The notes under the pieces: generated by a model
Databases searched by the model: none
What the model was told of the DNA's origin: nothing
The model's input: only the letters and a program-made list of their open reading frames with translations
In this document: in pieces, positions 102 to 59,400 of the stretch
Position numbering within the stretch: the stretch's first letter is position 1
Layout of the letters: every line of letters starts with the position of its first letter
DNA from: Mobula birostris
Taxonomy: Eukaryota
Direction: 5' to 3'
Length of the DNA: 64,000 nt
Assembly (NCBI RefSeq): GCF_030028105.1
Contig: NC_092372.1
Coordinates: 168,770,058-168,834,057 of the forward strand
Made by a program: the position numbers and the translations under genes

Positions 102-163
102 CAGTTGATAACTGCAATTTGCTGTCATATAAAGTGTTGGAGTGATTACAATTACTACATTTA

Positions 164-2645: not shown

Positions 2646-2810
2646 TCATAAAATGGATGAACATTCATTTTGGAAAGGTGTTCCCTAGTGCTGACTCAAC
2701 CTGTGGGATAAAACATCCTCTCAGCATCCACTTAAAGAAGCTCACTTAGGTCACCTCTCATTCTTCTAAAAAACAGTTAATTATCAGCCCAACCAGCTCA
2801 ACAGATGACA

Positions 2811-3339: not shown

Positions 3340-5475
3340 AAATCAACCTAACGAAAGCTCTTCTGCATTGCCCAATGCAGATTTACCCCTCTTTATATAA
3401 GAGCAAAGCTCTACCCAATACTCTAGGTGTAATCTCACTGAGGCCCTGTACATTTGTAGTAAAGTTACCCTTTCTTTGCATTCTATTCTGATTGCAATGA
3501 GGGCATTTGTTCCTTTTACTTTTCTATATCATTATTGCATCTACATGCCAACATCATGTATCTTATGTATGAGGGCACAGTAAGGCACCATTCTGTCAGT
3601 TTTCTCCTTTAAGGTAATATTTAGGTTTTCTATTCTTCCTACCAAAATGGAAAACCTCATATTCTTCCATGTTACTCCATCCATCCTAGCAATTGCAACA
3701 AACTTGACTTGGTCCTTTCATTAAGTTGTTAAGATACAATGTAAATAGTTGATGCCCTAGCATTGATTCCTGCAACAACATATATATTCTGGCTTGCCTA
3801 TCTGAAAATAATGCAATTATCCAGAATTATTTTATTCTGTTAGTTAACCAATCCTCTATCCATGTTGCATATTACTCCTAATGCCATGAGCTCATATCTT
3901 GTATAGTAACATTTTATGTGGCACTTTATCAAATGCCTTTTAGGAATCTAAACATCTGCTGCTTCCCTTATCCATCCTGCTTGTTACATTCTCAATGAGC
4001 TTTAGCAAATTTGTCAGCATGATTTTTCTTTCATAAGACCATATTGACTTGGCTTAATTACATGATGATATGCTACCATGTCTTTAATAATGAATTCTAG
4101 CAGTTTACCCATGACAGATGTCAGGTTAACATGAGTGTAGTTTCCTGCTTTTTGTTTCCTTTCTTATCTGAATAGGGAAATTTATGATACTTCAACATGC
4201 TGTAACCTTTACAGATTCTATGGAATGTTAGAAGAAGTTTTCACTCTACCTCCAACAACTCCTTTTAAGGTCTATGGATGTAGGCATCATGTCCAGGGAA
4301 CCTTTCAGCCTTTAATCCCATGAGTCTGTTTAATAGTCTTTTCCCAGCAATAATGACGGCTTGAAGGTTTTCGCAATCTTTGTTCCTTGATTTTCTCCAA
4401 TTAATTGGATGCTTTTACCATGAAGACATACAATATATTTGTTCAAAATCTCTGCTATTTTCTCATTTCTCAGTTTCATCTTCTATGGGGCAAACTTTTG
4501 CTTTTGCTATTCTTTTTATATTTGCATAGAAATTCTCTTTCGATATGGTGTCATCCTCAACTCCGCTTTCGTGGATGGATCATCCTTTTCACTGTCTTTT
4601 CCTCAGTGGAGTACACTTTTGTTGAGAATTAGGAAATACTACTTTAAATGCCTGCAATTTCTTATCTTCTTACCTAAATAAACTATTTTCCCTGTCCACA
4701 TTAGCCAGTTCTCCCAAACTGCCCTCCACAACCCACTTCCTTTGGTAGCTCCTTCTACATAGATACCACCCTTTTTGTGAAAAAAATGAAGTTGCTCTTC
4801 AAACTACTATTAAGTCTTTCCCCTCTTACTTTAAACATAGGCCTTTTAGTTCTTGATTCTCCTACACTGGGAAAAAAGATTTCACTGCATCCATCCTCTT
4901 CATTTTATACACCTCTCAGTCTCCTATGCTATCTAGAATAAATTCAAAGCCTGTCCGACTTCTCTTTACGACTCAATCCCTCAAGACCTTGCAGCATATT
5001 TGTAAATCTGATCTGCACCCTTTCTAGATTAATACCATCTCTGCTATAGCAAGGTGACCAAAACTGAAGTTAAGATGTGTGACAGTCTTCTACGATTGAA
5101 TATCTATCCAATTTTCACCCTCCTTGATGCATTGCTGTTTCTGAAGTTTGTGTTCCAATTCACCATCACCTTGCATGGAGCCAGAGGCAAGAACTTCCCT
5201 GTTGTCAGGAAATTCTGGGGCAGATTCAGGAGAGAGACATAAGAGATCACAGGTTTGTGGTTGATAATGCTGTGGATAGTGTAGAACAGATTGTGGAGAA
5301 AGTTTGTGCAGATTGTGCAACTTTGACGGATCTATATATGCATACCTTAAAATCCCTCTGTTCCTCCATACTGTTAAGAATCCTGCCATTAACCCTATAT
5401 TGTGCCTTCAACTTTAACCTTCCAAAGTGAATCACTTCACACTTTATCAGACTGAACTCTATCTGCATCTCTTAG
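3340..5475 (-). mobile_element. Mosaic of old, decayed CR1 ORF2 fragments
   Basis: Remnant motifs such as KCEVIHFGR (ORF 5247-5468) and an AFDKVPH-like stretch near 3915-3945; many stops and indels. Confidence 0.7.
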
Positions 5476-5725
5476 ATGTTGGAATCTACAGCAACAATAT
5501 GCTTTAGGAACTCAGAAGAAAAGAACTGCAGAGGTATCAAGTCGAGACCCTGCATCAGGACCATGAAGGAGAATTACTTGAGCAACATCTATGTGGGGTG
5601 GGGGAGGAGAGTTGGAGAGGGAGCGCAAGAGAGAGAAAGGGAGTGTGAAAGAGTGAGAGACAGAATGAATCTCCAACCTCTCTAACCCCTCCAGACGCTG
5701 CCAAATCTGAGTTCCCCCAGAATGT
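5476..5725. mobile_element. Penelope-derived terminal repeat remnants in inverted arrangement
   Basis: gagaccctgcatcaggac at about 5543-5560 is a degenerate hammerhead-type core on the minus strand; opposite-orientation cagacgctgcc...gagttcccccag near 5692-5720. Confidence 0.5.
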
Positions 5726-6264: not shown

Positions 6265-6343
6265 CAGGGGTTCCCAATGTATTTTATGCTATGGACACTG
6301 ACCATTAACTAAGGGGTCTGTAGACACCAGGTTGGGAACTCTG
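6265..6343. mobile_element. 79-bp hAT (Charlie/MER5-like) MITE
   Basis: TIRs caggggttcccaa / ttgggaactctg; 8-bp TSD ctctaatg (6257-6264) versus ctctaaag (6344-6351). Confidence 0.85.
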
Positions 6344-18299: not shown

Positions 18300-19881
18300 C
18301 AGGTGTCCTCCGCTTTTCGAACGTTCGCTTTACGAAACCTCACTGTTACGAAAGACCTACATTAATACCCTGTTTTCGCTTTCAGAAGGTGTCTTCACTG
18401 TTACGAAAAAAAAGCAGCGCGCAGGGAAAATCAGCGCGTGATAAAAGGCAGCGCGCGCCCCGAGTAGCCACTGTCCCCCGGATTCGGAATCGCATTCTAG
18501 CCAGCATTGCTTAAACACATGCCTGTGAGCAGCCGTTTGCAAGATGAGTTCTAAGGTATTGGAAAAGCCTAAAAGAGCTCATAAGGGTGTTACACTTAGC
18601 GTAAAACTAGACATAATTAAGCGTTTCGATCGTGGTGAACGAAGTAAGGACAAAGTGAGTTTGGCTTGTGGAAGCTGACGAAGATGATGTTGAAGAGGTT
18701 TTGGCATCCCACGACCAAGAACTGATAGATGAAGAGCTGATGCAATTGGAAGAAGAAAGGATAACGATCGAAACCGAATGCAGTAGCAAAAGTGAAGTCG
18801 TTCAGAAACTGAACGTGAAGCAACTGCGTGAGATTTTCGCTGCAATGATAAAGTACGACTTTAATTTTGAAAGGGTACGTAGGTTTAAGGGATATTTGCA
18901 GGATGATTTGAGTCCTTACAAAGAACTGTATGATAGAAAACTGCGCGAGGCTCAGCAGTCAAGCAAGCCTTCCACATCAGCCACAGCAGACAACGAACCT
19001 CGACCTTCGACATCGAGGCGGGCAGTCATAGGAGAAGATGAGCTGCCTGCTCTAATGGAAACAGACGACGAGATGACACCTCACTGTCCCACCACCCTAC
19101 GATTCACGGAGAATGCAGCGGTAGCTGGGAGGCACACAGCACATCTTTAAGAAAAAAGCCGAAATAAACATGCTAATTAATTAGGTGCCGCCCGATTGCA
19201 TCGTCTCTGATCTGGGCCGACAATTACGTGTCGGGCAGCACCTAATTAATTAGCATGTTTATTTCGGCTTTTTTCTTAAAGATGTGATGTGTGCCTCCCG
19301 GCTTACCGCTGCACCCCTGCATGCTTCACGGATCAGGATCGGTTGGTGGCCACTGCACCACCCCAACCTGCGACGACTCAGTCTAACACACCATCATCAG
19401 CGTGCTCGGCGCTGAACCAATTCCGGTAAGTGATACTACACTGTACATTCATTATTTCTACTTTATATAGGCTGTGTATTTTTACGTGTTATTTGGTATG
19501 ATTTGGCAGCTTCATAGCTTAAAGGTCACTGGACAGCGCTTGCACCGTGTTTTTGCCAACAGCGCTTGCGTGAGATTTTCTGCCGACGGCGCTTGTGTGA
19601 GATTTTCGCTACGGAGAACAGTGCAGTAATGATTGTGGAAAAGTATTTCTACTTTATATAGGCTGTGTATTTATCATATCATTCCTGCCTTTACTATACG
19701 TTACTGTTATTTTAGGTTTTATGTGAAATTTGGCATGATTTGGTAGGTTATTTTTGGGTCTGCGAACGCTCACAAACTTCTCCCATATAAATAAATGGTA
19801 ATTGCTTCTTCGCCTTACGGCATTTCGGCTTACAAACTGTTTCATAGGAACGCTCTACCTTCGGATGGCGGGGGAAACCTG
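18300..19881 (+). mobile_element. Tigger/pogo-family non-autonomous deletion derivative (1582 bp)
   Basis: TA TSDs (18298-18299, 19882-19883); imperfect TIRs caggtgtcctccgc / gcgggggaaacctg. CENP-B-like N-terminus MSSKVLEKPKRAHKGVTLSVKLDIIKRFDRGER from 18544 is fused out of frame to a Tigger acidic C-terminus (ORF 18668-19150); no DDE domain. Confidence 0.9.
19114..19313. repeat. Long inverted repeat (arms about 82 bp, 35-nt spacer)
   Basis: 19114-19195 is the near-perfect reverse complement of 19231-19313. Confidence 0.95.
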
Positions 19882-21110: not shown

Positions 21111-21336
21111 TTTGATCATTTATTTGTGCTTAAAAATGATCTCAGGCTGAAAGATTTTAGATATTGCAACTGACAATACCATTGGTTTGGGAAAGTTCAA
21201 AAAGTTGTGAATATATCCAGCACTAGAAATGTACCTGTGCAAACCTTGAAATGTAATAGGTAATTGCCAGCTTTTGCTCCCATGGTTAAATAAGCTGCTC
21301 ATATTGAATCTGTAAATATATATAAGGAATGGTCAG

Positions 21337-21570
21337 AAACACAAGAAAGTCTTCAGATGCTGGAAATCCAGAGTAATATACACAAAACGTTGGAGATACT
21401 CAGCAGGTCAGGAACTCATCGATGGAAATGAATAAACAATTTTCCAGGCTGAGACCTTTCATCCTGACTGGAAAGGAAGGGAGAAGATGCCTGATTAAAC
21501 CAGTGGGGGAAGGGGAAGGAGGACGTTAAAATATGATAGGTGAGGCCAGGTGGCTGGGAAGGTAAAGGAC
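21337..21570 (-). mobile_element. Penelope-like element 3' end
   Basis: Colinear with 34444-34700 (cagatgctggaaatcca...cagcaggtcagg...gagacctttcatc). Confidence 0.7.
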
Positions 21571-31201: not shown

Positions 31202-32269
31202 GTAACAGAAGAAGTCTCATTAAGTAGCTTTTACAAATAGTTGGCACAGGATCTGACTGGCGTTTTCTACACTATATAGTTCAATGAACTTTCAACTTTG
31301 CAGTATCCCATATCCAATATTGTCTCTTCAATCAGAAAAATAATCAACATTCATCAGTAAACATCTGGAGTAAAAGTCCAGAGAACTTTAGATTGAGTAC
31401 TTTTTAGATGTCAATTTTATACCAGAAAACAGCTGCTTTGTCATATACAGAGATATTTTGATAGCACTGAATACAGATCTTGATTAATTTACCCTGAAAG
31501 ATTTGCTATCTAAAGTTTCTCTCTATTTTAAGTGCTGTTAGTCTTTTAAGTCATTACTCACAAGCTCATCTCAGAGTACATCAGCATAAATTTACATTGT
31601 TAATGAACATTTGTGGTAAATGTATTAATGGCACTTGTAAGTATCAATTCAGTGTTAATAACTTTATGTAATGCAATGAGTTTATTTTTTTTTCATGGGA
31701 GAACGTCACCAGTCAAAAGCCTGCACTCAAATTTATTGAGTACATAAATGATTCATTTCGCACCTGGGTTCTACAAATATAGTACACTGCAAAGCTAAAC
31801 TTTTTTTCTAACTATACATGAATTACAAAACCTAAGATATTTAAAATCAGCAAATAATTTACCTCAAACAACAGTTCTAATTAAACTACATGAGCAAGTC
31901 TGATGAAACGTTATAGACCTGAAGCATTCACTTACTCCAACTGTGGATGCTCCCTGACCTGTGGAAACCTACAGGATATTTTGTTTTTATTTTAAGTTTC
32001 TGACAACTATACTACCTTGCTTTCACAAATTACTGAATTCTTTTCTCTTCTATAAAGGCATTTATGTTACAATTAAATGCTTTATGGACATATTATTTGT
32101 TTTTAACATGATGAACACATGAAAAGAAAAGAATGTCTAGGAACAAAGCAGCATTATGTAAACTACTAATTCTCAGAAACCATTGCCAGTCAAGTTGAAA
32201 AGTGCTAGCAGGATCAGAAGTTAGACCTAACTGAATGGATAGAAAATTTACTAAACGATCCAAGGCTTG

Positions 32270-33785: not shown

Positions 33786-34443
33786 GTGGAAGTTATATAC
33801 TGTTTTTTTTTAAAACAGCAAACTCCTGTCCATTATATTTCTTTTTCAATTTTGTATGATATAATCTACATAATTATGTGATATATCAAGATTAAAAGCA
33901 GACTAATTATCAATTCACATAAAAAAAAACACTTTTCTTACATAGCAAAGATTGCTGCAAGTTTTGTGTGTGTTGTTTGGATTTCCAGTATCAGCAGATT
34001 TCCTCGTTTGCAAGTTTTAAAGGATTTATTTTTAGGTATTGTTGCTTTTTTTGCCCACAGTCCTGACCTGAATGACTTGGTAGACCCAAAATAACTCTTA
34101 GCTAACTAGTTTTCTAATAATTATTGTTTCTAATATACACACAGGTCATCTTTTCTATTCCTCTCACCTTTTTTTTTAATGAAGAACTTCAAAAGTCTTA
34201 CCAACTTTTCTACAAAAACTCACTATGCCTATACTTCCACTCACAATTCACCTCTCCCATTACTCATATCTCTCTATTCCCAAACCACAAATGTGGTTCT
34301 CTTGTCCTTGCTTTGAACCACATGAGTATACACAACCACATGCTCCAACCCAATTATCGAATCCCCTTGTCTTTCAGTATTTTAAAAGGAGTGTTCCCTC
34401 TGCCATATCTAGGCATTTTTTATAAAAAAGCCCCTCTATTTGT

Positions 34444-35135
34444 AAACAATAGAAAATTTGGAGATGCTGGAAATCCAAACCACACACACAAAATGCTGGA
34501 GGAACACAGCAAGTCAGGCAGAATCTATGGAAAAAAGTACAGTCCATTTTTCGGACCGAGATCCTTCGGCAACACTGGCAAAAAAAGATGAGGAGTAGAT
34601 TTCAAAGGTGGGGGAGGGGAGAGAGAAATGCAAGGTGATAGGTGAAACTGGAGGGGGAGGGATGAGGCAAAGAGCTGGGAAGTTGATTGGTGAAAGAGAT
34701 ACACGGCTGGAGAATGGAGAGTCTGATAGGAGAGAAGGCCATGGAAGAAAGAAAAAGGGGGAGGAGCACCAGAGGGAAGTGATGGGCAGGCAAGGAGATA
34801 AAGTGAGAGAAGGAAAAGGGGATGGGGAATGGTGTAGTGGGGGGCATTACCGGAAGTTCGAGAAATCGATGTTCATGCCATCAGTTTGGAGGCTACCCAG
34901 ATGGAATATAAGGTGTTTTTCCTCCAATCTGAGTATGGCCTCATCGCGACAGTAAAGGAGGCCACGGATGGACATATCGGAATGGAAATGGGAAGCGGAA
35001 TTAAAATGGGTGGCCACTAGGTGATCCCGCTTCTTCTGGCAGACAGAATTTAGGTGCTCAGTGAAATGGTCTCCCAATCTATGTCGCGTCTCACCGATAT
35101 ACAGGAGGTCACACCAGGAGCTTTGGACACAGTGC
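34444..35135 (-). mobile_element. Penelope-like element, GIY-YIG C-terminus and terminal repeat
   Basis: Minus strand YIGETRHRLGDHFTEHL...VATHFNS...LEEKHLIFHLGSLQTDGMNIDF (includes ORF 34847-35077). Confidence 0.85.
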
Positions 35136-35479: not shown

Positions 35480-37090
35480 ACAGATAGGTTGAGTGAATTT
35501 GCAAAAACTCAGCAAACTGAGTTTAATGCAGGAATAGTGCAAGATCATGTAACTTGCTAGCAGGGGAAAAAGACAGATTATCATAATGGGCAGAGATCAC
35601 AAATAAGTGAAGTACAGTACGTCCAGTACATGACTCACAATAAGTTAACAGGCAGGTGCATCAGCAAGGCAAATGAAATATTGGGATTTATGGCAATGGG
35701 ATTGAGTTTTAATTTAGGCAAGTATTGTTACAAATCTCCAGAGTGCTAGCAAGGCCACACTTGAGTCTTCTCTTCTCATTTAAGAAAGAATATAACAGTA
35801 TTGGAGGTTGTCAAAAGAGATTCACTATGTTAATTCACGAGATGACAGAATTGTTCCATTACGAGAGACTAAAACTGTTGATTTTGTTCCTTCTGGAGAA
35901 TACAAGAATGAGAGATGATCTTATTGAAACAAATACTGAAGGTGAAAGACATGATAGACATTGAGAGGTTTCTGCAAGTGAAAGAGTCTTGAAAGAGTAA
36001 TATACGTAATTATTTAGGATATTCAAGATTGCTTAACATAATTTCCAGTATACATGAAGAGCAATGAAATAATTGTTTATCTGAATGGATGCAAAAAACA
36101 CACAATAAGGCAAAGAACGTAAGAAATATAAATACTTAAATACACAAATTGATTGAAGGGTCTCGGCCTGAAACGTCGACTGTACTCTTTTCTATAGATG
36201 CTGCCTGGCCTTCTGAGATCCTCCAACATTTTGTGTGTGTTGCTTGGATTTCCAGCATCTGCAGATTTTCTCTTGTTTGTACATAGACTGATTGTATGTC
36301 CATAAAGTGATGCTAGGCACAGGAGGTGTACATAAGGTGAATGAGAGGAAACAATAAAGTAATGGTGGTGGAGGATGTTGAGCAGTGTGTTAGTTGGTGG
36401 AGGTATCACTGCTTGGGAAAGTAATTGTTTTAGAGTCTGATGGTCCTGGCTTGGAAGCAATGTAGCCTCCTCCCTGATGGAAGTGGGACAAACAGTCCGT
36501 GAGCAGGGTGGGTGGAATCCTTCTTGATGTTACTGGCTCTTTTCCTGCACCTTCTGTACATATGTCCTCAAAGGCAGGTAGACTGGTGCCAGTGATGCAT
36601 TGAGCAGTTTTGACTACCCATTATAGCGCCTTCATGTCTGCCATAGTACAGTTTCCATACCATGCAGTGATGCAGCTTGTTAGGATGCTCTCTATTGCAC
36701 ATCTGTATAATGACTTGAATATACAAACGTAGATGTGCATAGTCCAACTTTCTTCAGCCTCCTCAGAAAGTTGGTGAGTTTTCCTGATTGTGTTCTGGGA
36801 CAATGAAAGGCGATTACAAGATAAACAGGTGGTAATTTAAAACTAGTGCATAGAAGCTTCTTCCCACAAAAGACAGTAAATCTTTGGAATTGCCTGCTCC
36901 ACACAGTTGTAGACACCAGATCACTGGAGGTACTTAGTGGAGATAGATAATTTTTAGAAAAATCATGAAATTGAGGGGTAGGGGGAAACTAGCACAGATG
37001 ATGAACAATGGCCTGAGATAAATCAGTCACAAAAATTTTGAATGGTGGAATAACATGAAAGGCATAATGGCTTACTTCTATTTTCTTGTC
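35480..37090 (+). mobile_element. Old CR1 interrupted by a Rex1 fragment
   Basis: LARPHL and QKRFT in ORF 35725-35964; 3' part resumes at about 36800. Confidence 0.6.
36020..36790 (-). mobile_element. Rex1/Babar-like 3' fragment, containing a Penelope terminal repeat at 36150-36279 (+)
   Basis: YRCAIESILTSCITAWYGNC (ORF 36621-36803); insert gaagggtctcggcctgaaacgtcgactg...cagcatctgcagattttctcttgttt. Confidence 0.8.
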
Positions 37091-37234
37091 TTCTTGCTTT
37101 GGTCTCTTAAAACTGCCCACCATTCAGTAAGATCATGACTAGTATACAACCTCTACACTGCACAACTTGCACAACACACACAAAGTGCTATAGAACTCAG
37201 CAGTTAAGGCAGCATCTATGGCGGGGAATTACAA

Positions 37235-37749: not shown

Positions 37750-38960
37750 CCACTCAGGTCATTCATTGCATCATGAAGACATATAACAGTTCATGTTCCA
37801 AGCCCACACTGATAATGCTCCCCACTCTTTCTGTGCTACGTTGACAACAGCATTGGTGCTGCCTCCTGCTTCCATGCCGACCTTGTCAATTTCATCAACT
37901 TGCTTCCAACTTCCATCCTTCCCTCAAATTTATCGGTCTGTCTCTGACATCTTTCTCCCCCGTCTCGATCTCCCTGTCTCCGTCTCTGGAGACAAGACTA
38001 TCTATTGACACAGTTGATGTCAGAAGTTTACATACACCTTAGCCAAATACATCTAAACTCAGTTTTTCACAATTCCTGACATTTAATCCTAGAAAACATT
38101 CCCTGTCTTAGGTCAGTTAGGATCACTGCTTTATTTCAAGAATGAAATGTCAGAATAATAGTAGAGAGAATGAGTTATTTCAGCTTTTATTTCTTTCATC
38201 ACTTTCCCAGTGGGTCAGAAGTTTACAACAAGCGTGTGCGAGCAAGGAGGCCTACAAACCTGACTCAGTTACACCAGTTCTGTCTGGAGGAATGGGACAA
38301 AATTCCAGCAACTTACTGTGAGAAGCTTGTGGAAGGCTACCCAAAACGCTTGACCCAAGTTAAACAACTTAAAGGCAATGCTACCAAATACTAACAAAGT
38401 GTATGTAAACTTCTGATCCACTGGGAAACTGATGAAAGAAATAAAAGCTGAAATAAATCATTCTCTCTACTATTATTCTGACATTTCACATGCTTAAAAT
38501 AGTGATCCTAACTGACCTAAAACAGGGAATGTTTTCTCAGATTAAATGTCAGGAATTGTGAAAAACTGGGTTTAAATGTATTTGGCTAAAGTCTATGTAA
38601 ACTTCTGAGTTCAACTGTATCTTTTCTAAGCCTACTCACGCTTTCAGCTATCTTGACTGTACCTCTTTCCACCCTGTCAATTATAAATGCGTAAAAAAAT
38701 AACTTTTCTCAGTTCTGCCCTCTCTGCTGCATCCGTTCCCATGATAAGCTGTTCCATTCTAGAACATCTAAGATGTCCTTCTTCTTCAAATACATGTAAT
38801 GGGGTTTCCTTTCCACCACTGATGCTGCTATTGCCTGCATCTTCTCTATTTCCAGCACATCTGCCCTCATCCCAACCTCCTGTTGCCATAACAGTGATAG
38901 TGTTTTCTTTGTCCTTACCTAACACCACATATCAAACCACTCTTCCAATCTTGTCAACAA
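37750..38960 (+). mobile_element. Penelope-like RT fragment split by a Tc1 insertion
   Basis: Frameshifted IGAASC.HADLVNFI..NFHP.LKF...LDL.VS.SGDK, then after the insertion F.KPT...SYLD.TS.HP. Confidence 0.75.
38011..38617 (+). mobile_element. Sleeping Beauty-like Tc1 (IR/DR group) non-autonomous element, 607 bp
   Basis: Inverted repeats of about 216-220 bp (38011-38226, 38398-38617), each with outer and inner tcagaagtttaca-type DRs. Internal KRVRARRPTNLTQLHQFCLEEWDKIPATYCEKLVEGYPKRLTQVKQLKGNATKY. Right TA intact, left CA. Confidence 0.95.
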
Positions 38961-39669: not shown

Positions 39670-40258
39670 ATGCCATCAGGTTGGAGGCTACCCAGGTGGA
39701 ATATAAGGTGGCGTTTCTCCAACCTGAGTGTGACCTCCGCAGCAGTAGTGGAGGCCATGGATTGACATATCAGAACGCGAAGTGGAATTAAAATGGGTGG
39801 TCACCAGGTGATCCCACTCCTTCTGGCGAACAGAGCATGGCGCTCGGCAAAACAGCCTCCCATGAACATCAACTTCTCAAAGTCCCAGTAATGTTGCCCT
39901 CTACCCCACCATTCCCCACCCCCTTTTCCATCTCTCACCTTATCTCCTTGCTCATCCATCACCACCCGTTGGTGCCCTCTTCCCTTTTCCTTATTCCACA
40001 GCCTTCTGTCCTCTCCTATTAGATTTCCCCTTCCCCAGCTCTGGGTATTTTCACCAATCAACTTTCCAGCTGTTTACTTCACCCCTCCCCCTCTCAGTTT
40101 CACCTATCACCTTGTGTTTCTCCCTCCCCTCCCCCCATCTTTTAAATCTACTTGTCTTTTTTTCTTCAGTCCTGCTAAAAGGTCTTGGCCTGAAACGTTA
40201 ACTGTACTCTTTTCCATAGATGCTGCCTGGCCTGCTGCGTTCCTCCAGTATTTTGGAT
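39670..40258. mobile_element. Penelope-like 3' fragment with 5' inversion
   Basis: 39670-39860 runs in the same orientation as 34876-35075, while 39861-40258 is the opposite strand of 34480-34877. Confidence 0.8.
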
Positions 40259-42026
40259 GTAAAACAATGGTTGACTCAACCATGTTACACTGAAGGTTAT
40301 GTGTCTCACATTCCAACAGACGATGTCACTCAGATTCCAAGGCATATTTTGACTATGCATGTAGTAGATGATCCACAAGGTGATGCGAAACTGAATGACA
40401 GTGTGTCAAATGTCAGCCCTCAAAGCTCTGCTGTAGGAAGAAAACCTTCTGTATCTACATCCTCCTCTGCATGCATTAAAACAGAAGCTGATTTTGCTGG
40501 ATTAATGGCATGTCAATAATTATTGAAAGACAAACATGCGCTGGAAAAGCAAGAGGAACAACTATGGAATAGGAAGGAACAGCTTAAGATGGAGGAAGAA
40601 ATTGCCGCACATATGGCTAAAGTAAATGTGCTAAGGGCTTCAAGTGTAGCAAGGGCTAAAAGTGCTCCAGCAGCATGGTCTTATGGTGTCAATTCTTATA
40701 TTGAAAAGGCACAGGAAAAAAAAACAATCAATATCAATGTTGATTCATTTGTTCCTCATGTATTTGGGATACATTAACAAAACCCAAAGTAGTAGTTCAG
40801 GGGGTTTACACTCAGCTTGCACTAATGAGGCGCTCTGAACCGATGACATATCCAACAGCTCAAAGAGCTCATGGGGAAATTCACCTGCAGCATAGAAACA
40901 CTCCTGTTTCAGACGTTAGAGGTCAAACAGTATTATTGATATTATGAAGAAGCAAAGTGAAATAACAATCTTATTGGCACAACAACAATGTATTTTATCT
41001 TTGTCTAAAAGAGAGATTCAAATCTTAGATGGCGATCCATTGTAGTATCATGCATTCATGAAGGCCTTAGAAAGCAAAACTGACAGCCATAGTGACTGCC
41101 TCTATTTCCTTGAACAATAAACTAGGGATCACCCTAGAGAACTTGTGAAATGTTTTCAGCATGTCAACCCTAAGAAAGGATATGTCACAGCTAAGGCTTT
41201 ATTACAGGAATATATTGTAACGAACAGAAAATTGCATCCACCTACAAGCAAAAGGCTCTTTCTTGGGTACTTATCAAATTTGAAAATGTAAAAGCCCTTC
41301 AAGACTACAGTGTTGTTCTTAGAGGCTGTTGCAATGCCATGGAAGAAGTGCAGTACCTGCGTGAGCTGGACATGTCTGCCAAATGTCAATTGTTGTAAAG
41401 AAACTGCCTTACATTATAAATGGAGAACGGAACTGCAAGAAAGGCACAACCATAAGAGTATTGTTGATTTTATTGAAGGGCAAGTAAAGATTGCAACAGA
41501 CCCGGTACTTAGGAATATACAGTCACCTGCAATAATCAAAGGTGTGAATACAACTAAGTTACAACTTTGTTCTAGGACTAAAGGAAGCAGATTTGCCACT
41601 ACTGTGGCCATTGTGGAAGTAAAGCTGAATCTGAACCTCGAACTAATGGAAGGGAAATGGTCTTGCCAGCCAAAGGGGTTTGTCTGTTCTGCAAAGGTGA
41701 AGACACATTGGATATATGCCCTTAGCTGGAGAAAAAGGCTCATATTGAGAACGTTGTCTTTCTAAAGGAAAATGTTGTCTGCTTTGACTGTTTGTGTACA
41801 GGATACATCAGCAAGGATTGTAGGGCATGATTTTCATGCAAGGTAAGCAGTTTTAAGCATCCCAGCACATTTCATATTCACACTAACGAAAAGAATGCAG
41901 AATCAAAACATGCCGTGAAAGAATCAGCATTGAGCGGTGCCCTGATACATAACGGCCTTACAGGGGCTGGCGATCATAATTCCAGTACAAGTGAAATCTA
42001 AGGGAGTAACAAGACTGTGGTTACTT

Positions 42027-42118
42027 ATCAAAGTTGCTGGTGAACGCAGCAGGCCAGGCAGCATCTGTAGGAAGAGGTGCAGTCGACGTTTCAGGCTGAG
42101 ACCCTTCGTCAGGACTAA
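42027..42118 (-). mobile_element. About 92-bp Penelope terminal-repeat insertion
   Basis: Same family as 36150-36240 and 40165-40258; interrupts the BEL protease region. Confidence 0.85.
42081..42116 (-). ncRNA. Minimal type I hammerhead ribozyme motif
   Basis: AGUC-CUGACGA-AGG(GUCUCAG)CCU-GAAA-C-GUC-GACU: stem I AGUC/GACU, core CUGANGA, stem II AGG/CCU, GAAA, palindromic ACGU in place of stem III, GUC cleavage triplet. Confidence 0.7.
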
Positions 42119-43048
42119 GTCCGACTTCACAGGAAAAAGGACACATATTCTCTTGAGCACCACGGGCAATAGAAGGTCATGAGCAGCTACACTGTTTCAG
42201 AATTGCAAGTGGCTGGCTTAGATGGTGAAAACTATTGTGAACTACCTAACATCTTTAAATAGGAGAGTATTCCTGTCCATGGAGGGAACAATCCATGACG
42301 GGGATCTCCAGGGATGGTCTCACCTGAAGCATGTCCATTTGTCAGAGATTGATTCAGAAATTAAGCTACTAATAGGGACAAATATGCCTAAAGCATTGGA
42401 GCCATTGCAAGTGATTCGCACGGGAGAACTATGTTGGGTTGGACTGCAAATGTACTACTGAAAAGAATCAATGGTGACAGGAGAGACTATGCATGGCCTG
42501 AGCCCACAGTTAACAGGATCTCAGTTTTGAACTTGGATGACCTTTGGCAGTGGCAGTTCAAGGCAGACTTCCCTGAATGCAGGCAAGATTAACAATTTGG
42601 TTTGTCAAGATAAGACCACAAGTTCATGGAGCTGGTTACAAATTCTGCAAAACTATTAGACAGACACTATCAAATTAGTTTACCTTTGAGAAAGGAGGCT
42701 AACATGCCAAATAACAGGAAGATTGAAGAACAGCATGCTCTAAATTTAAGGAAGAGGTTTAAAATGGATTTCTCATTTCAGATAGACTACACAGCTTCCA
42801 TGATGAATGTCATCTCTAAAGGTCATGCCGAAACAGTGCTAGCAGAGGATCTGGAATGCAGTGATGGGAAAGTCTGGCATATTCCACATTATGATGTTTA
42901 CCACTCCAGAAAAGGGGAACTTCATGTTGCGGTTGAATGTGGAGTGACTTTTCAAGAAATATCAATGCTTAGCTCTTACAGGGACCGGATCTTACTAGCT
43001 CACTGGTTGGAGTCATAACCAGATTCAGAAAAGAACCAGTGGTGATCA

Positions 43049-44159
43049 AAGTTCAAAGTAAAATTTATCATTAAAATACGTGCAAGCCACCACATACAAC
43101 CCTAAGATTCTTTTTCCTGTGGGCATACTTAGCAAATCTATCGAACAGTAACTGTAAACAGGATCAAAGAACAACAAACTGTGCAAATGCAAATATAAAT
43201 AAATAGCAATAAATAACGAGTATGAAATAATATAAAATGAAAGAGCATGAAATAACAAGATAAAGAGCCCTTAAAGTAGAACCATCGGTTGTGGGAACAC
43301 CAGAAATAGTATGAGTGTGGTCATCCTCTTTTGCTCAAGAGCCTGATAGTTCAGGTGTAGTAACTGTTTTTGAACACAGTAGTGCAAGTCCTGAGGCACC
43401 TGTACCTTCTACCTTATGGTAGCAGTGAGAAAAGAGAATGACCTGGGTGGTGAGATTCTTTGATGATGGATGCTGCTTTTCTAAGGTAATGTTTCATGTA
43501 GATATACTCAATGGTTTGGAGAGCTTTACCCATGATGTACTGGGCCAAATCCACTACCTTTTGTAGGATTTTCCACTCAAAAGGCATTGGTAGCCAGTCA
43601 GCACACTTTCCACTACACATCTATACAAGTTTGCCAAGATTTTTGATAACATAATTGTCCTAGACTCCTGAGGAAGCAGAGGTGCTGTTGTGCTTTCTTT
43701 GAAATTAAATTTATATAAATGGGTCCAAGATAGGGCCTCTGAGGTAGTCCTGAGTCTCGAGGGCCTCTGTATTAAGGAATTTAAAATTGATCTTCTCCAC
43801 CTCTGATCCTCCGATGAGTACTGACTCATGGACCTCTGGTTTCCCTCTCCTGAAGTCTACAATCAGTTCCTTGGTCTTAGTGAAATTGAGTGAGAGGTGG
43901 TTGTTATTACACCATTCAGCCAAAATTTTAATCTCCCTTCTGTATGCTGACTTATCACCACCTTTGATGCAGCCCACAACAGTGGTGTCATCAGCAAACG
44001 CATGTGATGTTGGAGCTGTACTTAGCCACACAGTCATAGGTGTAAAGTGAGTAGAGCAGGGTGGCTAAACACTCATCCCTGTGGTGCTCCTGTGCTGATG
44101 GAGATTGTGGAGGAGTTGTTGCTGCTAATCTGAACTGACTGTGATTTGCAAGTGAGGAA
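43049..44159 (-). mobile_element. Rex1/Babar-like LINE fragment nested in BEL RT
   Basis: FADDTTVVG, LNFTKTKELIVDFRR (ORF 43711-44037); (tttgaa) tail; atca duplicated at 43045-43048 and 44160-44163. Confidence 0.9.
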
Positions 44160-44989
44160 ATCATGGCAAATACTGAATCAATGTTTCATCAGGTTAAAGT
44201 ACGAGAGGAAGATGCAGATCAGCTGAGGTTTCTCTGGTGATCTGATGGTGGCCTCAGCCAAGATATGATGGACTTTAGAAAGGTGGTACATCTCCTTGGA
44301 GCAACTTCATCACCAAGGTGTGCCAACTTCGCCCTTAGGAAATGTGCAGAAGACAATGAAAATCAGTTCAGCTGAGGCTGCAGATAACATTTTGGTTTTC
44401 TTCCTTGTTGATAACTGCCTTGTGTCAGTGTCCTCTGAGAAAGAAGTGGTATCTCTGTATCATGGCGTATCCATTTGTGTGAAAGGTGGCTTTTAACTCA
44501 TGAAGTAGATAGCAACATACATAGTGTACTAACTGTGCATAGAGAAAGACATGAAGGATTTGGATTTGGATTAAGATGTAACTTTGGGGAGAGAGTACTG
44601 GATGTGCAATGGTCTGAAGATTGCTAATGTGATTACACAAACTTCGCTTATTTCGCTAATAATTGCTATATTACATTGTCATGCTCCTGACTTTCATTCC
44701 TGCACATTGCAGTATAGTTAGATGTTACTGAATCTAATCTCCTGTCCCATTGCTGAAGTTTGCATTTTATTCTATTTGATATTAATATTTTAACAACATT
44801 ACTTAAGTTTTTTAATAAAATTATTAATTTTGATTTTTTAAAAATACTTTTAACTATTTTAAAACATTTCTGGCTATCAGAAACATTTAGTTGTAAAGGC
44901 ATGATATGTCAAAAGGTCATTAAGGCATTCTGTGGGAGATGCCATGTGTAAAATGAGGCCAATGGAGTGTTATATATAGGAGACAGCAG

Positions 44990-47185: not shown

Positions 47186-50100
47186 TTCAATATTTTTTAT
47201 TAGTTTCTACATAAAAGAATACAAAGTATATATAAAGGTTGAAAAAAATGACTACCGATTACATTATATCTATTCAAAATAACAATCTCATTACCCTGTA
47301 TTCATGTAGGTTAGTCAAAGTTATGTTGAAATATACTAATTTATTACAAAAAAAATCTAACCCCTACCAAGACCAAAACTGTTTATTAAGGAGAAAAGAA
47401 GGTAAAATACCTTCTCGTATAATAAAAATTAAAAATAGTCAACATCTGAATTTAAACAACGAATTGAAAGTCTTGAAAGTTTTGAAAATAATTCAGAAAG
47501 GGTCCCCACAATGTTTGGAAGTCTTGACGAGGTTCAGAAATTGAATAGCGAATCTTCTCTAAATCTAAGCATGACATAACATCGCAAAACCATTGAGCAT
47601 GAGTAGGAGGAAAAACATCTTCCCATTTAAACAAAAGCGCCCTCCTAGCTATAAGAGAGCTGAAGGCCAAAATATGTAAATCTGATGTCTCCAGCTTGAT
47701 ATCTTGTCCAGCAACAATACCAAATAGGGCTGTCAGAGGATTAGGCTTAAAATTGACTTTGAAAAGTAAAGAAAAAGTTTGAAAAACTTCCTTCCAATAT
47801 TTTACAAGACATGGACAAGTCCAAAACATATGAATTAATGAAGCTTCTCCATTTATTGCATCTGTCACAGTAGGGAAATATATCCAAATAAAAACGAGAT
47901 AGCTTACCTTTAATCATACGGATTCAATGTACCACCTTAAATTGTATGAGGGAATGGCGAGCACATAGCGATGATGTATTAACCAGTTTAAAAATTTCAT
48001 TCCAAATTTGCTCAGATATTGATGTCTGTAAGTCTTGTTCCCAGAGATTCTTAATTTTGTCTAAAGGAATATTCCTCATCTCCAGTAATACACCATAAAT
48101 ATTAGATATTGAACCATTATAAAAAGGTGTCAAATTAAAAATTATGTCTAGTAGGTTCTTATCTGACCTTATAGGAAATGTACATAATTGAGATCTTAGA
48201 AAGTCTCTAATTTGTAGATATCTAAAAAAGTGAGTTTTGGGACAGCGATGTTTAGCTGACAATTGCTCAAATGAAAAAAGATCTCCTCCAACAAACAGAT
48301 TCCAAAAGTATTTAATACCCAACCTGTCCCATTCTTTAAAAACTAAATCAGTCATGGAGGTTTTTAAAAAAAAATAGAATAAATGGGACTAGAAAGGGAA
48401 AATCTCAATAAACCAAAATGTTTTCTAAATTGAATCTCAGAGTATGTTTAACTATTAAATTATCAGTTAGTTTCCTTACAAATAAAGGAAGTGAGGATCC
48501 AAGAAGAGAAATAATAGAAAATTTACTAACAGAATTAGCTTCTAAAGAAACTCATACCAGACAGTCTACATGATTAATATAATATATCCGAAACGCAAGA
48601 TATCGTATATTAACTGCCCAGTAATAAAACCTAAAATTAGGTAAGGCTAAACCTCCAGACTTCTTTGGTTTTTGAAGATGAAATTTATTTAAACAAGGAC
48701 TTTTTTTCCATATATAGGAGGATCGAATAGATTCAAGTGAGTCAAAAAAGGATTTAGGAATAAAAATGGGTAAAGCCTGAAAAAGATACATAATTTTAGG
48801 TAGAATATTCATTTTAATAGAATTAATTCCTCCGACCAACGATATTGAAAGAGGTGACCAATTTAATAATATCTTTTTTACATGGTTCAATAAAGTAAGT
48901 TTTCTTTAAACAGGTATTTGTAATTCTTAGTGATTGTTACACCCAAATAAGTAAATTGATTCCTTACAATTTTAAACGGAAGATTAATATTAACTAATAC
49001 CAAATTATTTAAAGGAAATAATTCATTCTTATGTAGATTCAATTTATATCCTGAAAACTGGCCAAAACAGGAGAGTAAAGAAAATACACAAGGTAACAAA
49101 ATTTCAACATTACAGATAAAAAGCAATATATCATCAGCGTAAAGCGCGATTTTGTGGGTGATAGCTCTCCTTGAAATACCACAGCTATCATTAGATTCTC
49201 GAAAAGCAATAGCAAGGGGTTCCAAAGCTAAATCGAAAAGTAAAGGACTCAACGGACAACCTTGTCTAGTTCTGCAGTGAAGTTTTAATGGTTTGGAATT
49301 TTGAAAATTAGTAAGAACTCGAGCAGAAGGAGATAAATAAAGTAATTTAATCCATTGAATAAAATCTGGTCCAAAATTAAATTTTTCTAAAGTTTTAAAT
49401 AAATAATTCCATTCAACCCGATCGAAGGCTTTCTCAGCATCTAAAGATATCACACATTCCGATATCTCCTGAGAAAGAGATTAAATAACATTTAATACAC
49501 GGCATATATTAAAATAGGAATGTTGGCTTTTAATAAATCCAGTCTGATCACCAGAAATAATAGAAAGTAAAATATTTTCAACCCTACGAGCCAGAACTTT
49601 AGGAAGAATGTTAGTATCTATATTAAGTAATAAGATTGGCCTATATGAAGAGCATTCAGTTGGATCCTTATTCTTTTTTAGGATAAGTGAAATAGAAGTT
49701 TCATAAAAAGATTGAGGCAAACTACCTAATTTGAAAGAATCCAAAAAGACTAAGTACAACTGCGGTATAATTAATGAAGAAAAAGCCTTATAAAATTCTC
49801 CTGAAAATCCATCTGGACCCGGAGCCTTCCCCGAGTGTAATGAACGTATAGCCTCGGCTATTTCCTCATACGAAATGGGTTGATCCATCCATTTGCAATT
49901 ATCTGCAGAAAGTGCAGGGATATTTAATTGATCTAAAAAATTGTTCGTTACAGTATTATCTTTAGGGGAGTCAGAACTATAAAGTTTAGAATAGAATTCT
50001 CTAAAGGTATCATTTATTTCAGAGTAATCATTTGTCCTATCACCATTCATTTTGCAAATTTCTTTAATTTGTCATTTAACTACAGAAGTTTTTAATTACT

Positions 50101-52819
50101 ACTACTACTCTACTACTACTACGTCGACTCAGGCCTAGGGGGCCAGCGTCGGGCATGATGACAGACTCTCCACTTCTCTTAATTGGTTGGCCAACACTTT
50201 GCCTGATTTATCTCCATGAATGTAAAATTGAGTTTTATCTTTTAAGAAGTTGAGTTTCAATTGGATATCTTAACAGAAGATCATATTTAGTTTGAACTTC
50301 AACACGTCTTTTATACAAAACAGGATCTGGAGCTATAGCGTATTTTGATCTAATTGTTTTAATTGATTGGCTAATTCAATTCTTTGTTTATTAGCTTTAT
50401 TGTTAACACTCACAGTATAAGAAATAATTTGTCCTCTAATATAGGCCTTGAAAGTATTCCATTCAATAAGATTTAAGTCTCTTCCTTTTTATTCTCTTCA
50501 AAAAACAAAATAATATGCTTCTCTAGAAATTTTAAAAATTCCTTATCTGATAACAAAGTTGTATTAAAACGCCAGAATCTGTTGGTTTCAAGAAGACCAG
50601 GGAGTTTTAAAGATAAAAATATAGGACCATGATCTAAAACAGCAATCTCTTTATATTCACAGGAACGAACTGATGAGATCATTTGACTATCAATAAAAAA
50701 AAAATCAATCCTGGAATATGTGTGGTGAACATGGGAAATAATCCAATATTCCCTATCTATGGGATGTAAGAAATGCCAAACATCAACTATACCACACTTC
50801 AATAAAAATAATCGTATAAACAAAGCTGATTTATTAAGAGACGCTGGTTAACAGATGATTGGTCTAAGATTGGGTCGAGCCAACAGTTAAAATCTCCTCC
50901 CATCACCAAAGAATAAAGATTCAGATCTGGTAAAAAAAGAAAAAAAAATATTCAAAGAATCCTGGGTCATCATTGGCAAATACTATTATCTTATTATCTA
51001 GTTTTTCTGAGACTATAACAAAACGTCCATTAGTAGCAGACTTTATGTTGGACAAAGGAAAGTGTATTATCTATAAGAATCAAAACGCCTCTAGATTTGG
51101 CCTGAAAAGTGAAAACAAAGTCCATTCCAACTGCTAAAAAAATGTAGATATCACATTTGCGTGTGTGAGTTTCTTGTAAAAAAAAAATAGGGACCTTAAA
51201 TTTCTTAATATAAGCATAAATCTTATTACATTTAACAGGGCAATTTAATCCTTTCATGTTAAAACTGAGTAAATTAATAGTTTGGTCCATTTTTAATATT
51301 ATTTAAAGGAAGGATTAAAATGTAAGTTAAAAACCAAGCTATAAGCCTTGAGAAATGGTAACCAAGCAACAAGTTGGCTAAAAATTCGTAAGCAGCTTCC
51401 AGAAAAAAAACATAACCCCGCCCACCTCCCAAAGGAAGAAAACCGACCAATAGAAAGTCGGCATCTACAAACTACTGACAACCCCCCAAAAAACCGGGTG
51501 ATCGCTCCAATTAGTTACAAGGATATTTATATTCCAACCTAGACTAAACAAAACCCAAACAAGAGATTCAGCTCTCGTATATCAAAAATACAGTATTAAA
51601 AAATACAAAAGGAAATTAGTTACAAAGGTTTATGAAAAATAAAAGATACAATTATTAATACAGAAAGACATTGAACATTAATCTTATATCTTCATGGAAA
51701 AACAGACTAAGCAATTAGCTTTCGAATTTTAAAAAAATCTTTGTGCTTCAACATTCAAAAGAAGCCATTCGAAGGATCCATCATTAATTAGATTCTCAGT
51801 CAAACTAGGTAGCCAAGGGACGGGTTAAAACCCTTGTTAAAGAAAACCCCAACAGAGCTTGTTTAAACTTAACACACTCCTGCATAACCTCAAGCCAATA
51901 ACCTTCCAGAATCTTAATGTTCCACCCTATAACCAGACATGCCCCTTCGACGGAATTTGCAAATTAGAAGTTTTCACTTAATCTTATGTCTTCATGTAAG
52001 GAGAAAGTACACAGTTAGCCTTGGGATTTAACCTTCGGATTTTTAAAATTTCTGTGCTTCAATAGTCGAGCAGAACCATTCAAAAGAACTGTTTTTAAGT
52101 GTAATTCTGAGTCGGGCTGGGTAGCGAAGGGAAGGCTTGAAACCCATATTAAAAAACTTGGACATAACTTCTTTGAATTTAACACATTCCTGCATAACCT
52201 CAGGTGAATAATCTTCAACAATTCTAATCTGCGCAATCTGTGAACTTGTTCAATCATAGGCACAGACGTCAAAATCTCCAGAAATAATTCTTGCAAAATG
52301 TTTGCAAAAAACTCCATAGGATGGTTACCTTCGATTAATTCTTCGAGACCCATAACCCATAGGTTGTTCCTTCTATTTCTAATTTCTAGATCGATAATCT
52401 TCTGTCCTAACTTTTTGTTGGACTTCGATTGCTTTTCACAAAGCTTCTGCAATTCATCCACTTCTGTTTCCAGAGCCGAAAAATTTGATACGTTTATTGT
52501 GTTTCTTGATACGTTTATTGTGTTCATTAAGAGTTTGTTGAATAGAGTCCAATTTACCATCTACTTGTTTAAATTCAGGGCTGAATTGTTGAAACTTCTC
52601 AGAGGCTTCTCGTGCATGACTTTGTAGCAATTCCATAATAGAATCCAAAGAGGCAGGAAAATTATCCTTTTTAGTACCTCTGGCACTCCTTCCAGCCATA
52701 ATGAAAGAATATCACACTTAAAAAAAAGACGTTTCAAGACGGTTTGAAAATAGTAAGATAATTAAAATTGGAGCAACGGCAGATTGCTGTTACTTCATCA
52801 GCCACCACAAGGAAATCTC
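47186..52819 (-). mobile_element. Near full-length L1-clade LINE (about 5.6 kb), inactivated
   Basis: ORF1 52015-52699 (LEIRNRRNNL, IEQVHR). ORF2 47452-51290 (SFNMKGLN, FLQETH, SRIDFFF, GKAPGPDGF, SLDAEKAFDRV, QGCPLSP, YADD, GGLALP, HMFWTCP) with frameshifts. TSD agaaattccttttctt (47170-47185) / agaaattccttctctt (52820-52835). Confidence 0.95.
50098..50178 (-). mobile_element. 81-bp RTE-like 3' end with (TAG)n tail inside L1 ORF2
   Basis: TSD ttaatt (50092-50097, 50179-50184); removing it restores LANQLKTSV. Confidence 0.8.
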
Positions 52820-56488: not shown

Positions 56489-59400
56489 CTGAATATCCAA
56501 TAGCACATGGTCAGTACAAGATTGTGTGCTGAAGGGCCTGTAATAAGCTGTAGATTTCCATGTTCTATGTTCTGTTCCTGGGACAATGAAGCAGATTGTG
56601 TCCTCACAAAGAACTGGACAAAAAAGACTTGAACTGATGTGGCATGTGCCCACCCCCAAACAAGTGATAGAATTCTAAAGTGGTCTATATCAATTTCCTC
56701 ACGAAATTCAACAGTAGTTCTTTTGCTGAATCTCTTACTATAAATTTCCTGTGGAAAATCAGCTTTAGAGTCAAAACCTATGCCTATATAGTCAGCACAA
56801 TCTCAACCAACAAAAGTCCTGCCTTGGTCTCCATAGAATTGGAAATTTGGTTCAACTTTTCCAAGCACCAAAAGCCACATTGATTGGTTTCAGTCTATTC
56901 AGACTCCTGCTGACACGTAGTGGCTCCTTCCAAATGACTACTTCCCAAAAAGCCTTGCACTTTAGTGAGGCTTTGACAACTTATGATCAGAGAGCCAACA
57001 GTCCACACTTCATTTCGAGCCAATTAGTTGGTCAACAGAATGAATTTTACATATTGAGTTCACAGTCAGATATTAAAATTGGGAAATACATGGAGATGGC
57101 AACAGAAACTAGGGGTTGGAGTTACAAAGTTGCAAGCAATCTGAGGTGACAGAACTCAGGGACCAAAGCCAGGGGACAGATGCTTGAAACTTCAAAAATT
57201 GAGGTGGGAGCTTGAGACAAAGAGAAGGGAGCAGTGTAAGCAGTGGGAGCTGAGCACAGGTTCCAGGTATAAGCTGAAGGAAGGAGAACTAAGAGTGGAA
57301 GACTTCAGCAGGGGAAGTGTGACAAGTGACAAGTGACAGGCCATTTGCCGCCATAGCAGAGAATCCTACAACTTTTAAGAGAAGGTGACTTCTACCATTC
57401 CTTTCCATGAACTGACCAAACAGGCATGAGGAACTTTTGTGGGGTTTGTTGTATTAAACTTAAAAGGTGCAAACCAGATAGTATCAAACCTTTTGCTAGG
57501 TTCTTGCATCTGCAATCATGTGCTGCATTTCTAGTTATGTTAATACATATTCAACTGTAGTGATATATTAATAAAGATTTATATTCTGTAATATTTTCTC
57601 CATTAACCATTGAGTGAATAAAACAACTGTCAATGAAAATTTACAGTAAAGATTAAATATTTTCACAATGTAACCTTCCCGATGTGATTATTCTGAAGAT
57701 TTGCATTATAACCTGAGGCACCCAATCTACTTTAAACAAGGTTGTTAGTGAAGCTCGAGTAGAGTTTTTATTTATGTGAACAAGGTAAAATTACTGTACA
57801 GCATCTCATGGCAAGACCCTGCTTCATAACAGGTTCCTGCAGTGTCCAGCTGACAAGCAAATGTGACAAAAACATCCTGCCCCGGGATTAGCTACATCAC
57901 GCAATACATTTTTAAGTGTTAACCATCTCACTTTAAAATTTTACAAAAGTAATCATCATAAACACAAATGAGCAGAACCTCAAGTGAAACAACCATATAA
58001 TTACTATAGCTACAAGACCAGAGGACAAGAATGCTGCAGGAAATAACTCCCACAAATGTTTCTTGCACTTTTTGGAGTAGGATGAGATCTTAAAGTTTAT
58101 TTGACTAGTTGTACAAACAAAGTAATACTTAGTAGAACATCATGGCAAGAGACTCCATTACTGAAGCAAGTAATCACCCAGGACAAAGGAACCATGCTGA
58201 ACCTTTTCACCTCTCCTCTATGGCTTTAATTTGTATCATCACAAAATGAATTAGTTTAAATTTACTAAGACCCTTTGACTGCACTTGGAAAATAACACAA
58301 ATCCCATTATCCTTATATAGAAGTATATTGTTATGTTCCAATGACAGAGATCAAGGAACTCTCAATCTCAAAAATGGTTCGAAAGGACTATAAAGCATCA
58401 TTTCCATTTGGGATAACTATGAATTATTAGCTTTAACAATACCACTGACATGCATTAGTTAACAAAGCAAAAAAAACGAAGCCCTGATACAGGGTCTTCC
58501 AAAAACACCAACCATCCCTTGCCTCCACAGATGATGTATCATCCACTGAGTTCTTCTGGCAGTTTGTATTTTATTCTATACTGTGACATCTGCATTCTTG
58601 TGTCTCTGAAAGAAATACAGAAGTGCCCATTGCACCAGCTCTTGCGATTACTGTTTGCCTTGTTGTCTGCTTCGTCATTGTTGCTGATTATGAAAACCAA
58701 ATCAAATTAACATTTCAAACTATCATGGCAGGAAGTTCCAAACATCAATTAATCAGCTTGTACATACGGTCATTATATGTCTTCTACATGCCCTTACTGG
58801 CCTGGCATGTAGAAGACACAGTGTTTCTCCAGAGCAGGGCTGGTGACATGCTACAGATGGCCGTAGAATGTCAACCTCAAAATAAGGTCTATGCCCAGAT
58901 GGCCCAGCTTCAAACTACACCTATCTTGCCAAGTATGGTGGCAGTATGCACTTGCTGAAAAGCAACAGGAAGGGCACTGGTGATTACAAGTGTAATCACA
59001 TATGCTATTATTCTGAGGCTGGACTCTCACTCACGCAACACGAAGTTGCTTCCTCAGGGCAGCTGCTCAGCAATCCAAATGAACAGTTTGAGAACCAATT
59101 GCTACGCTGCTTTGAAAGCCACAAAGCTCCTTTCAAAACAGGTATTCAGACTCATAATGGGATTAACCTATGTTTGGCATTTATAGAAGACTTCACGTGG
59201 TTTCAACTTGCCTGCAATGGAAACTGTAACACTAAAGGTTGTAGAAGTGCTGGTGTTATTGCATCTAAATGGAGTTGAGGATTAATTCCATATTGGAAAG
59301 GACAGGCTGCAATCAATTCAAAATCCATGGACAAGCTTAGAAATATGTTCTTCATAATCCCTGGAATTTCAGACAAGGCGACTATGCACCAAAATTTCTC

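Follow-up and report, generated by a model that had tools for sequence, protein, structure and literature searches.

A Penelope-type minimal hammerhead ribozyme in a truncated, likely Neptune-type element within a TBC1D5 intron of Mobula birostris

The window, that is, the whole 64,000-nt stretch of Mobula birostris DNA analysed here, carries a minimal hammerhead ribozyme in a 92-bp insert at 42 kb. We interpreted these 92 bases, with good confidence, to be a terminal-repeat piece of an abundant Penelope-like element (PLE) of a ray, likely of the Neptune type, left by a probable abortive insertion, and we predict its hammerhead to be a near-silent passenger. The motif is the already described Penelope minimal hammerhead (Cervera and De la Peña 2014), here in a truncated copy of this likely Neptune-type element.

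The type I minimal hammerhead reads along the minus strand from 42117 to 42080, with the predicted cut 3' of C42085 (C17). Its parts are:

42116-42113, minus: 5' strand of stem I, AGUC (plus U42117)
42112-42106, minus: core box CUGACGA
42105, minus: bulged A between positions 9 and 10.1
42104-42101 and 42096-42093, minus: stem II, GGGU with GCCU, loop CUCA
42092-42089, minus: core box GAAA
42088-42085, minus: C-G-U-C, C17 being 42085
42084-42081, minus: 3' strand of stem I, GACU (plus G42080)

Stem III is reduced to the palindrome ACGU (A15.1-C-G-U16.1), as the initial annotation of this DNA had stated and as can be read directly on the minus strand. The same annotation had called the hammerhead intact. 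Every core element was indeed present and exactly placed, but the pair 10.1-11.1 was G·U, not G-C. In hammerheads, such a change would be expected from mutagenesis to lower the cleavage rate. With its G·U the 42-kb copy is unlike the minimal hammerheads described previously, in which G10.1-C11.1 is highly conserved (Cervera and De la Peña 2014, PMC4209133), while the descriptor of the minimal hammerhead does not make the pair obligatory. Among six window copies, the pair was G·U in three, A-U in two and G-C in one.

The 42-kb motif had the makeup of PLE minimal hammerheads: the boxes CUGANGA and GAAA, an NUH site, type I topology, helices I and II, a palindrome at 15.2-16.2, no helix III, and a bulged base between 9 and 10.1. 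A descriptor scan, which the initial annotation had proposed as a check, gave the 42-kb site as the sole full match on both strands of the window. When reshuffled windows of the dinucleotide type were scanned with any stem III of 0-8 nt allowed, five matches were obtained in 300 (0.017 per window); the form with a 2-nt stem III gave none in 300. Rfam gave no match to a hammerhead model in the whole window or the 151-nt locus. Stem II was 100% paired across the six window copies. Covariation in these six decayed copies was not above that of shuffles, 173 of 500 of which reached the observed two double changes, and their fold z-scores against shuffles (-0.3 to +0.9) are uninformative for a motif so small.

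Ten pieces of the family, the 42-kb insert included, were found in the window:

42027..42118, minus: 92-bp insert with the ribozyme and the 58 nt that follow the predicted cut; end of a likely Neptune-type PLE, truncated at 5' and lacking the tail
34440..35134, minus: longer 5'-truncated copy with GIY-YIG C-terminus (35113-34850), pyrimidine-rich 3' UTR, decayed ribozyme and tail
39670..40256, plus: copy with an inverted 5' endonuclease ORF piece (39670-39834), UTR and decayed ribozyme, tailless
36150..36279, plus: short tailed copy that starts inside the first core box
21330..21567, minus: copy with a tail, a decayed core and about 100 nt of UTR
31897..32000, plus: old short copy from stem I on, second core box broken
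58480..58609, plus: old short tailed copy from the core edge on
5471..5657, minus: old copy that keeps about 80 nt of the pyrimidine-rich UTR
37160..37222, minus: piece downstream of the ribozyme only
33960..34010, plus: solo tail piece of about 50 nt

The initial annotation had listed seven other, degenerate sites, and all seven were matched by a profile of the window copies. The profile was built from five copies, which include four of the seven sites. Outside this training set, it matched with E values of 0.0003 (5.5 kb), 0.002 (58.5 kb) and 0.009 (31.9 kb), and its best match in the reversed window, which served as the control, had an E value of 7. The pieces at 37160-37222 and 33960-34010 were additional to that list, and both are without the ribozyme. 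The 42-kb copy was 74-87% identical to its sister copies, of which the one at 39.7-40.3 kb is inverted relative to it. A complete core with both stems was absent from all other copies in the window.

The 3' ends fell mainly into two classes. The short class (42027 and about 40256) ended 58-60 nt after the cut site, and the long class (34440, 36279, 21330, 58609 and 34010) ended about 44 nt further on. By comparison with other PLEs, the two classes look like the presence and absence of the PLE tail.

The Penelope origin proposed in the initial annotation was borne out by the sister copies at 34.5 and 40.2 kb, which join the end of a GIY-YIG ORF. The 34.5-kb copy runs upstream via the pyrimidine-rich UTR into 88 aa of GIY-YIG C-terminus ending at the ORF stop. 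The order at the 3' end of the family is the end of the GIY-YIG ORF, pyrimidine-rich UTR, ribozyme, about 58 nt, and an optional tail of about 44 nt. The 88-aa fragment had 487 relatives at E <= 0.001. Eight long full-element relatives (455-891 aa) were scanned, and Pfam found RVT_1 in seven of them and GIY-YIG in seven, the nuclease following the RT. A match to CX2-5CxxC, the linker feature of Neptune (Craig et al. 2021, PMC8557442), was present in 12 of 13 relatives inspected; in 11 of the 13, including the best match (68% identical), it lay in the linker that leads to the nuclease. Truncation has left the window copies without this part.

The Neptune-type structures seen were the two 3'-end classes and the inversion at 39670-39834, 5' inversion being typical of PLE structure (PMC8557442); tandems were seen solely as joints in sequencing runs. 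Pfam gave no match on the window's own nuclease fragment alone, and no relative of this fragment was found in prokaryote genomes. A 20-nt family pattern hit 33 loci in metagenome and viral contigs, and none of the 33 was the ray family. Judged from its sequence, the family is Penelope-like and likely of the Neptune type. Since no full-length element was seen, the 42-kb copy is tied to the ORF only via its sister copies and the UTR-like upstream consensus.

A distinct, retrozyme-type system of short elements, as the initial annotation had inferred, was not upheld. With the core as reference, the 5' ends ranged from +79 to -560, and at least three types of upstream sequence occurred among the ten copies. 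Two copies keep endonuclease ORF pieces, none is tandem, and one has a full core. Truncation of copies of an autonomous Neptune-type element gives just such a pattern.

An older Penelope-like RT fragment, which matches a Neptune-type relative, was seen at 37831-38934 on the plus strand. A 615-bp element that splits it at 38007-38621 has long inverted ends, and we take this element to be probably a Tc1-type MITE. Among the protein relatives, P0004, P0028, P0055 and P0064 are models of host-domain proteins that end in or contain the GIY-YIG C-terminus of the family, for example skate neuromedin-U receptor 1. These models are either exonised Penelope pieces or annotation errors.

The 42-kb copy sits in a decayed LTR retrotransposon, of which two pieces were seen:

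40980..43158, plus: decayed BEL/Pao gag-pol piece, the insertion target (relatives carry PF05380, PF00078 and PF03564)
44160-44615, plus: further piece of the same BEL/Pao element

Both limits of the insert, 42027 and 42118, and the remark that it starts just before stem I, were correct in the initial annotation; related contigs carry on in family sequence past both. The BEL relatives were colinear on both sides of the site, with 18 residues unmatched where the insert sits, and about 18 codons of the BEL/Pao protease region were missing there. Because the relatives have these 18 residues, about 54 bp of the target appear to have been lost. Contigs of intact BEL relatives skipped the insert, with a joint from 42002 to 42130 in runs X5 and X9. 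Pfam gave no match on the window's own BEL frames.

About 2 nt at each insert junction could belong to either side, which is possible microhomology, and the longest word common to the two junction regions was 4 nt. A target-site duplication was considered for the 42-kb insert and rejected, none being found. Insertion of PLEs without duplication and with joining by microhomology is on record (PMC3846280). A second insertion, of about 1 kb, splits the BEL/Pao RT region at 43159-44159.

Four public ray runs were compared with 41500-42700 at 80% likeness, giving 17,920, 39,404, 12,281 and 2,565 contigs. In runs X1 and X5, respectively, 242 and 413 contigs were in family sequence past 42027, and 98 and 261 past 42118. 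Beyond 42027 the loose ends contained the tail; ahead of 42118 they had a UTR-like tract of pyrimidines with CAG at its end. The summed depth in the DNA runs was 2-9 million on the insert versus 11-3000 on the flanks, which is not a copy number; the high copy number claimed in the initial annotation agrees with this depth, thousands of times above the flanks. Run X20, which is possibly RNA and may contain DNA, covered flanks and insert alike.

Stem I has its edges at 42080 and 42116, and exactly there hundreds of contigs diverged. This suggested that the ribozyme may be the most conserved part, with subfamilies leaving the reference at these edges. Judged by the 31-letter rule, the 42027 junction was not bridged by any contig (X1 and X5 had 25-26 letters), and sharing of the insertion between organisms A and B is therefore only a hint. 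On 42027-42118, single-contig joints in run X5 imply head-to-tail units of 37-97 nt, some of them almost ribozyme-only. Such units, if real, would be natural dimer substrates.

The insert lies inside a 41-kb intron of TBC1D5, in the sense orientation. The flanking exons are:

55153-55005, minus: first coding exon of TBC1D5, ATG at 55119, near-perfect Mobula protein match
about 13660-13591, minus: next coding exon of TBC1D5, near-perfect Mobula protein match

Aligned with Mobula proteins, they had 39/40 and 23/23 identical residues. Both exons are on the minus strand like the insert, in agreement with the earlier description of the copy as sense to the host pre-mRNA. Relative to TBC1D5, five of the ten pieces were sense and five antisense; on these small numbers, selection against the sense orientation is not apparent. 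With ten pieces of either orientation in 64 kb, ray introns carry the motifs densely, and pre-mRNA would thus seem to tolerate solo minimal hammerheads.

Other repeats were seen in this gene. Two LINE 3' pieces, at 1453-2172 and 15018-15737, are 96% complementary over 720 nt; they flank the TBC1D5 exon near 13.6 kb and could favour back-splicing or RNA editing. A nearly full-length but decayed element at 47400-52600 (minus strand), with pieces of ORF1, endonuclease and RT, is also in the TBC1D5 intron that holds the insert. It is presumably L1-like.

For the 42-kb insert, the course that best fits is as follows. The element protein would nick the target and copy uncut RNA from the inner of two starts downstream of the ribozyme. 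Use of the inner start would leave the tailless 3' end at 42027. In the Anolis Poseidon element PAc, the tail was traced to two internal RT starts downstream of the ribozyme, with mostly uncut RNA (PMC11167929). It counts against this explanation that the internal-start mechanism was shown in a Poseidon element, not in Neptune. Copying would then halt after 92 nt, and the end would be joined via short microhomology with loss of the target segment and no duplication.

In the full element, cleavage after GUC is predicted to require the pairing of two ribozyme copies through ACGU, and it would be slow and probably protein-assisted. The initial annotation had likewise held that cleavage would need a dimer, which is in line with published minimal hammerheads, uncut as monomers and weakly cleaved as dimers (PMC4209133). 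Among Xenopus dimers, eight of nine did not cut. The Anolis PLE ribozyme was cut only with its protein, and the main template was uncut RNA (PMC11167929).

The 42-kb copy is predicted to cut the host pre-mRNA rarely: it lacks an intact partner in the window, has a wobble pair at 10.1-11.1, is predicted to fold into a hairpin that traps the core, and has two relatives in inverted orientation nearby. The predicted fold was a core-trapped rod of -11.0 kcal/mol versus -7.0 kcal/mol for the open hammerhead. The trap pairs GACG with CGUC and buries the core, with a probability of 0.68-0.92 in four contexts. The ACGU self-duplex was -3.1 kcal/mol, and no intact partner ribozyme was found in the 64-kb window. 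The two inverted relatives are 1.8 and 5.7 kb away, and the predicted duplexes with them were -125 (40.2-kb copy) and -111 (36.2-kb copy). By these predictions, both could pair with the 42-kb copy in the pre-mRNA. The 42-kb ribozyme is most likely a passenger, predicted to be near-silent in the TBC1D5 intron.

A second point against the explanation by abortive insertion is that four of the ten copies start within 12 nt around the 5' edge of the ribozyme, above what random truncation would give. The 5' ends of the ten pieces relative to the core were -6, +4, -4, -3, -80, -100, -310, -560, +42 and +79. Four lay between -6 and +5, with scan-type P values of 0.03, 0.03 and 0.14 under three length models. 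This could reflect preferred inserts of 90-140 nt, made of ribozyme plus tail, with the 5' end fixed at stem I. We regard this as unlikely, though of all the alternatives it fared best. The fixed start could come from RT that begins at the internal site of an upstream repeat and runs off an RNA begun or spliced at the 5' edge of the ribozyme; alternatively, a short non-autonomous RNA could be moved by the Neptune protein.

Several features would fit such a start. The flanks of the copies starting at stem I are not pyrimidine-rich (Y fraction 0.32-0.57 versus 0.73-0.85 in UTR-bearing copies). A pyrimidine tract plus YAG, which resembles a splice acceptor, lies directly at stem I in all UTR-bearing young copies and in the family consensus. 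In Drosophila virilis, the Penelope intron runs up to the 5' end of helix I (PMC4209133), and the Drosophila Penelope intron is placed 46 nt after the start site. Loose ends at 42115 were long and heterogeneous in four runs (173, 222, 175 and 25 contigs), with an agreement of 0.32-0.38 and a median of 121-216 nt. Seven of nine go-back joints inside the insert (all nine from X5) restarted at 42115-42118, among the joints listed, 12 of 43.

On the other hand, the heterogeneous loose ends are equally explained if several subfamilies and old copies have different sequences ahead of stem I, and the go-back joints are biased to the reference edge and mostly at single-locus depth. No foreign exon sequence was seen ahead of the 42-kb copy, where at most 5 nt are unassigned. 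The clustering test was post hoc with n=10, and two of the four clustered copies are old with soft boundaries. We likewise doubt that inserts with a fixed 5' end are present in great numbers in ray genomes, whether as 'strong-stop' products or as a ribozyme-headed, SINE-like family. If a fixed start were true, it would map Penelope start and splice sites directly in DNA, and if the clustering at stem I holds genome-wide, the copy numbers in rays would make the start, splicing and copying of PLEs testable from one assembly.

Two other origins of the 5' ends were rejected. For inserts derived from cleavage, no copy starts at C17+1, the nearest starts being +4 and +42 from the core start. If RT stalled at the hairpin, copies should stop at the 3' rather than the 5' edge of stem I.

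It is also conceivable that the insert comes, as a solo monomer, from a tandem non-LTR retrozyme spreading via circular RNA, but we consider this very improbable. Retrozymes with solo monomers, derived from PLE terminal repeats, have been described in one chondrichthyan (Li et al. 2026, bioRxiv 10.64898/2026.07.22.740005), and a few head-to-tail joints of 40-100 nt units were seen in organism B. These joints, however, were at depths of 14-91, against about 15 for a single copy. The insert shares with animal non-LTR retrozymes (PMC7229834; bioRxiv 10.64898/2026.07.22.740005) a type I hammerhead, its non-coding nature, the relation to PLEs and the occurrence as solo monomers. Non-LTR retrozymes are defined by at least two units in tandem, with a complete ribozyme in each, and by circular RNA (PMC7229834), whereas the insert is a single unit in 64 kb, with no tandem unit and a single descriptor match in the window. 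A monomer derived from a circle would be permuted at the cut site, and the family instead continues into the PLE UTR and tail. The ribozyme is also of the minimal PLE type, not of the canonical type with loop contacts found in animal retrozymes.

That selection maintains the 42-kb copy for an effect of its intronic ribozyme on TBC1D5 RNA processing is hardly credible: it is the only window copy with a complete core and is sense to TBC1D5, but it is probably just young, it sits in a repeat, an organism C contig 94% alike (orthology not proven) stops matching at 42028, and the G·U change, the trapped fold, the absence of a partner and the 5:5 orientation of the copies all speak against it.

The reading as a truncated PLE end agrees with what is described for known systems. 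Like the PLE minimal hammerheads (PMC4209133), the ray motif is of type I, with a helix I of 4-5 bp, a bulged base after the core and a palindrome in place of helix III, and it lies in the terminal repeat of an RT/GIY-YIG element. According to the same paper, such motifs are found in fish Neptune, Xena and Poseidon elements and are mostly dispersed single motifs, 'probably related to truncated PLEs' (PMC4209133). Helix II is 4 bp in the ray copy versus 7-8 bp in the Schistosoma minimal hammerhead (PMC4209133). The abundance in rays looks far above the 4,000-9,000 motifs of coelacanth and Xenopus (PMC4209133), although the ray depth is not a motif count. The covered parts of the text and supplements of Cervera and De la Peña (2014) name no shark, skate or ray.

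Like the Neptune PLEs (Craig et al. 2021, PMC8557442), the family has a C-terminal GIY-YIG, the linker in its relatives, a 5' inversion, an optional tail and a ribozyme in the terminal repeat. With Anolis Poseidon PAc (Frangieh et al. 2024, PMC11167929) it shares two 3'-end classes and inserts that keep the uncut ribozyme. In contrast, the PAc ORF starts inside the ribozyme and PAc copying starts in an AC-rich loop (PMC11167929), whereas the ray ribozyme holds no long ORF start and the inner ray end is at a GU-rich run. Among the papers listed in literature searches on hammerheads and Penelope in cartilaginous fishes, none on the ray family was found. Taken by itself, the 42-kb insert adds a further truncated Penelope copy, carrying the motif one would expect, and matters little as it is.

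Elsewhere in the window, a near-perfect inverted repeat of 73 bp with a 35-nt spacer was seen at 19123-19303, with a microRNA hairpin score below the threshold. It adjoins an ORF remnant at 18659-19150, which we take to be pogo/Tigger-like.
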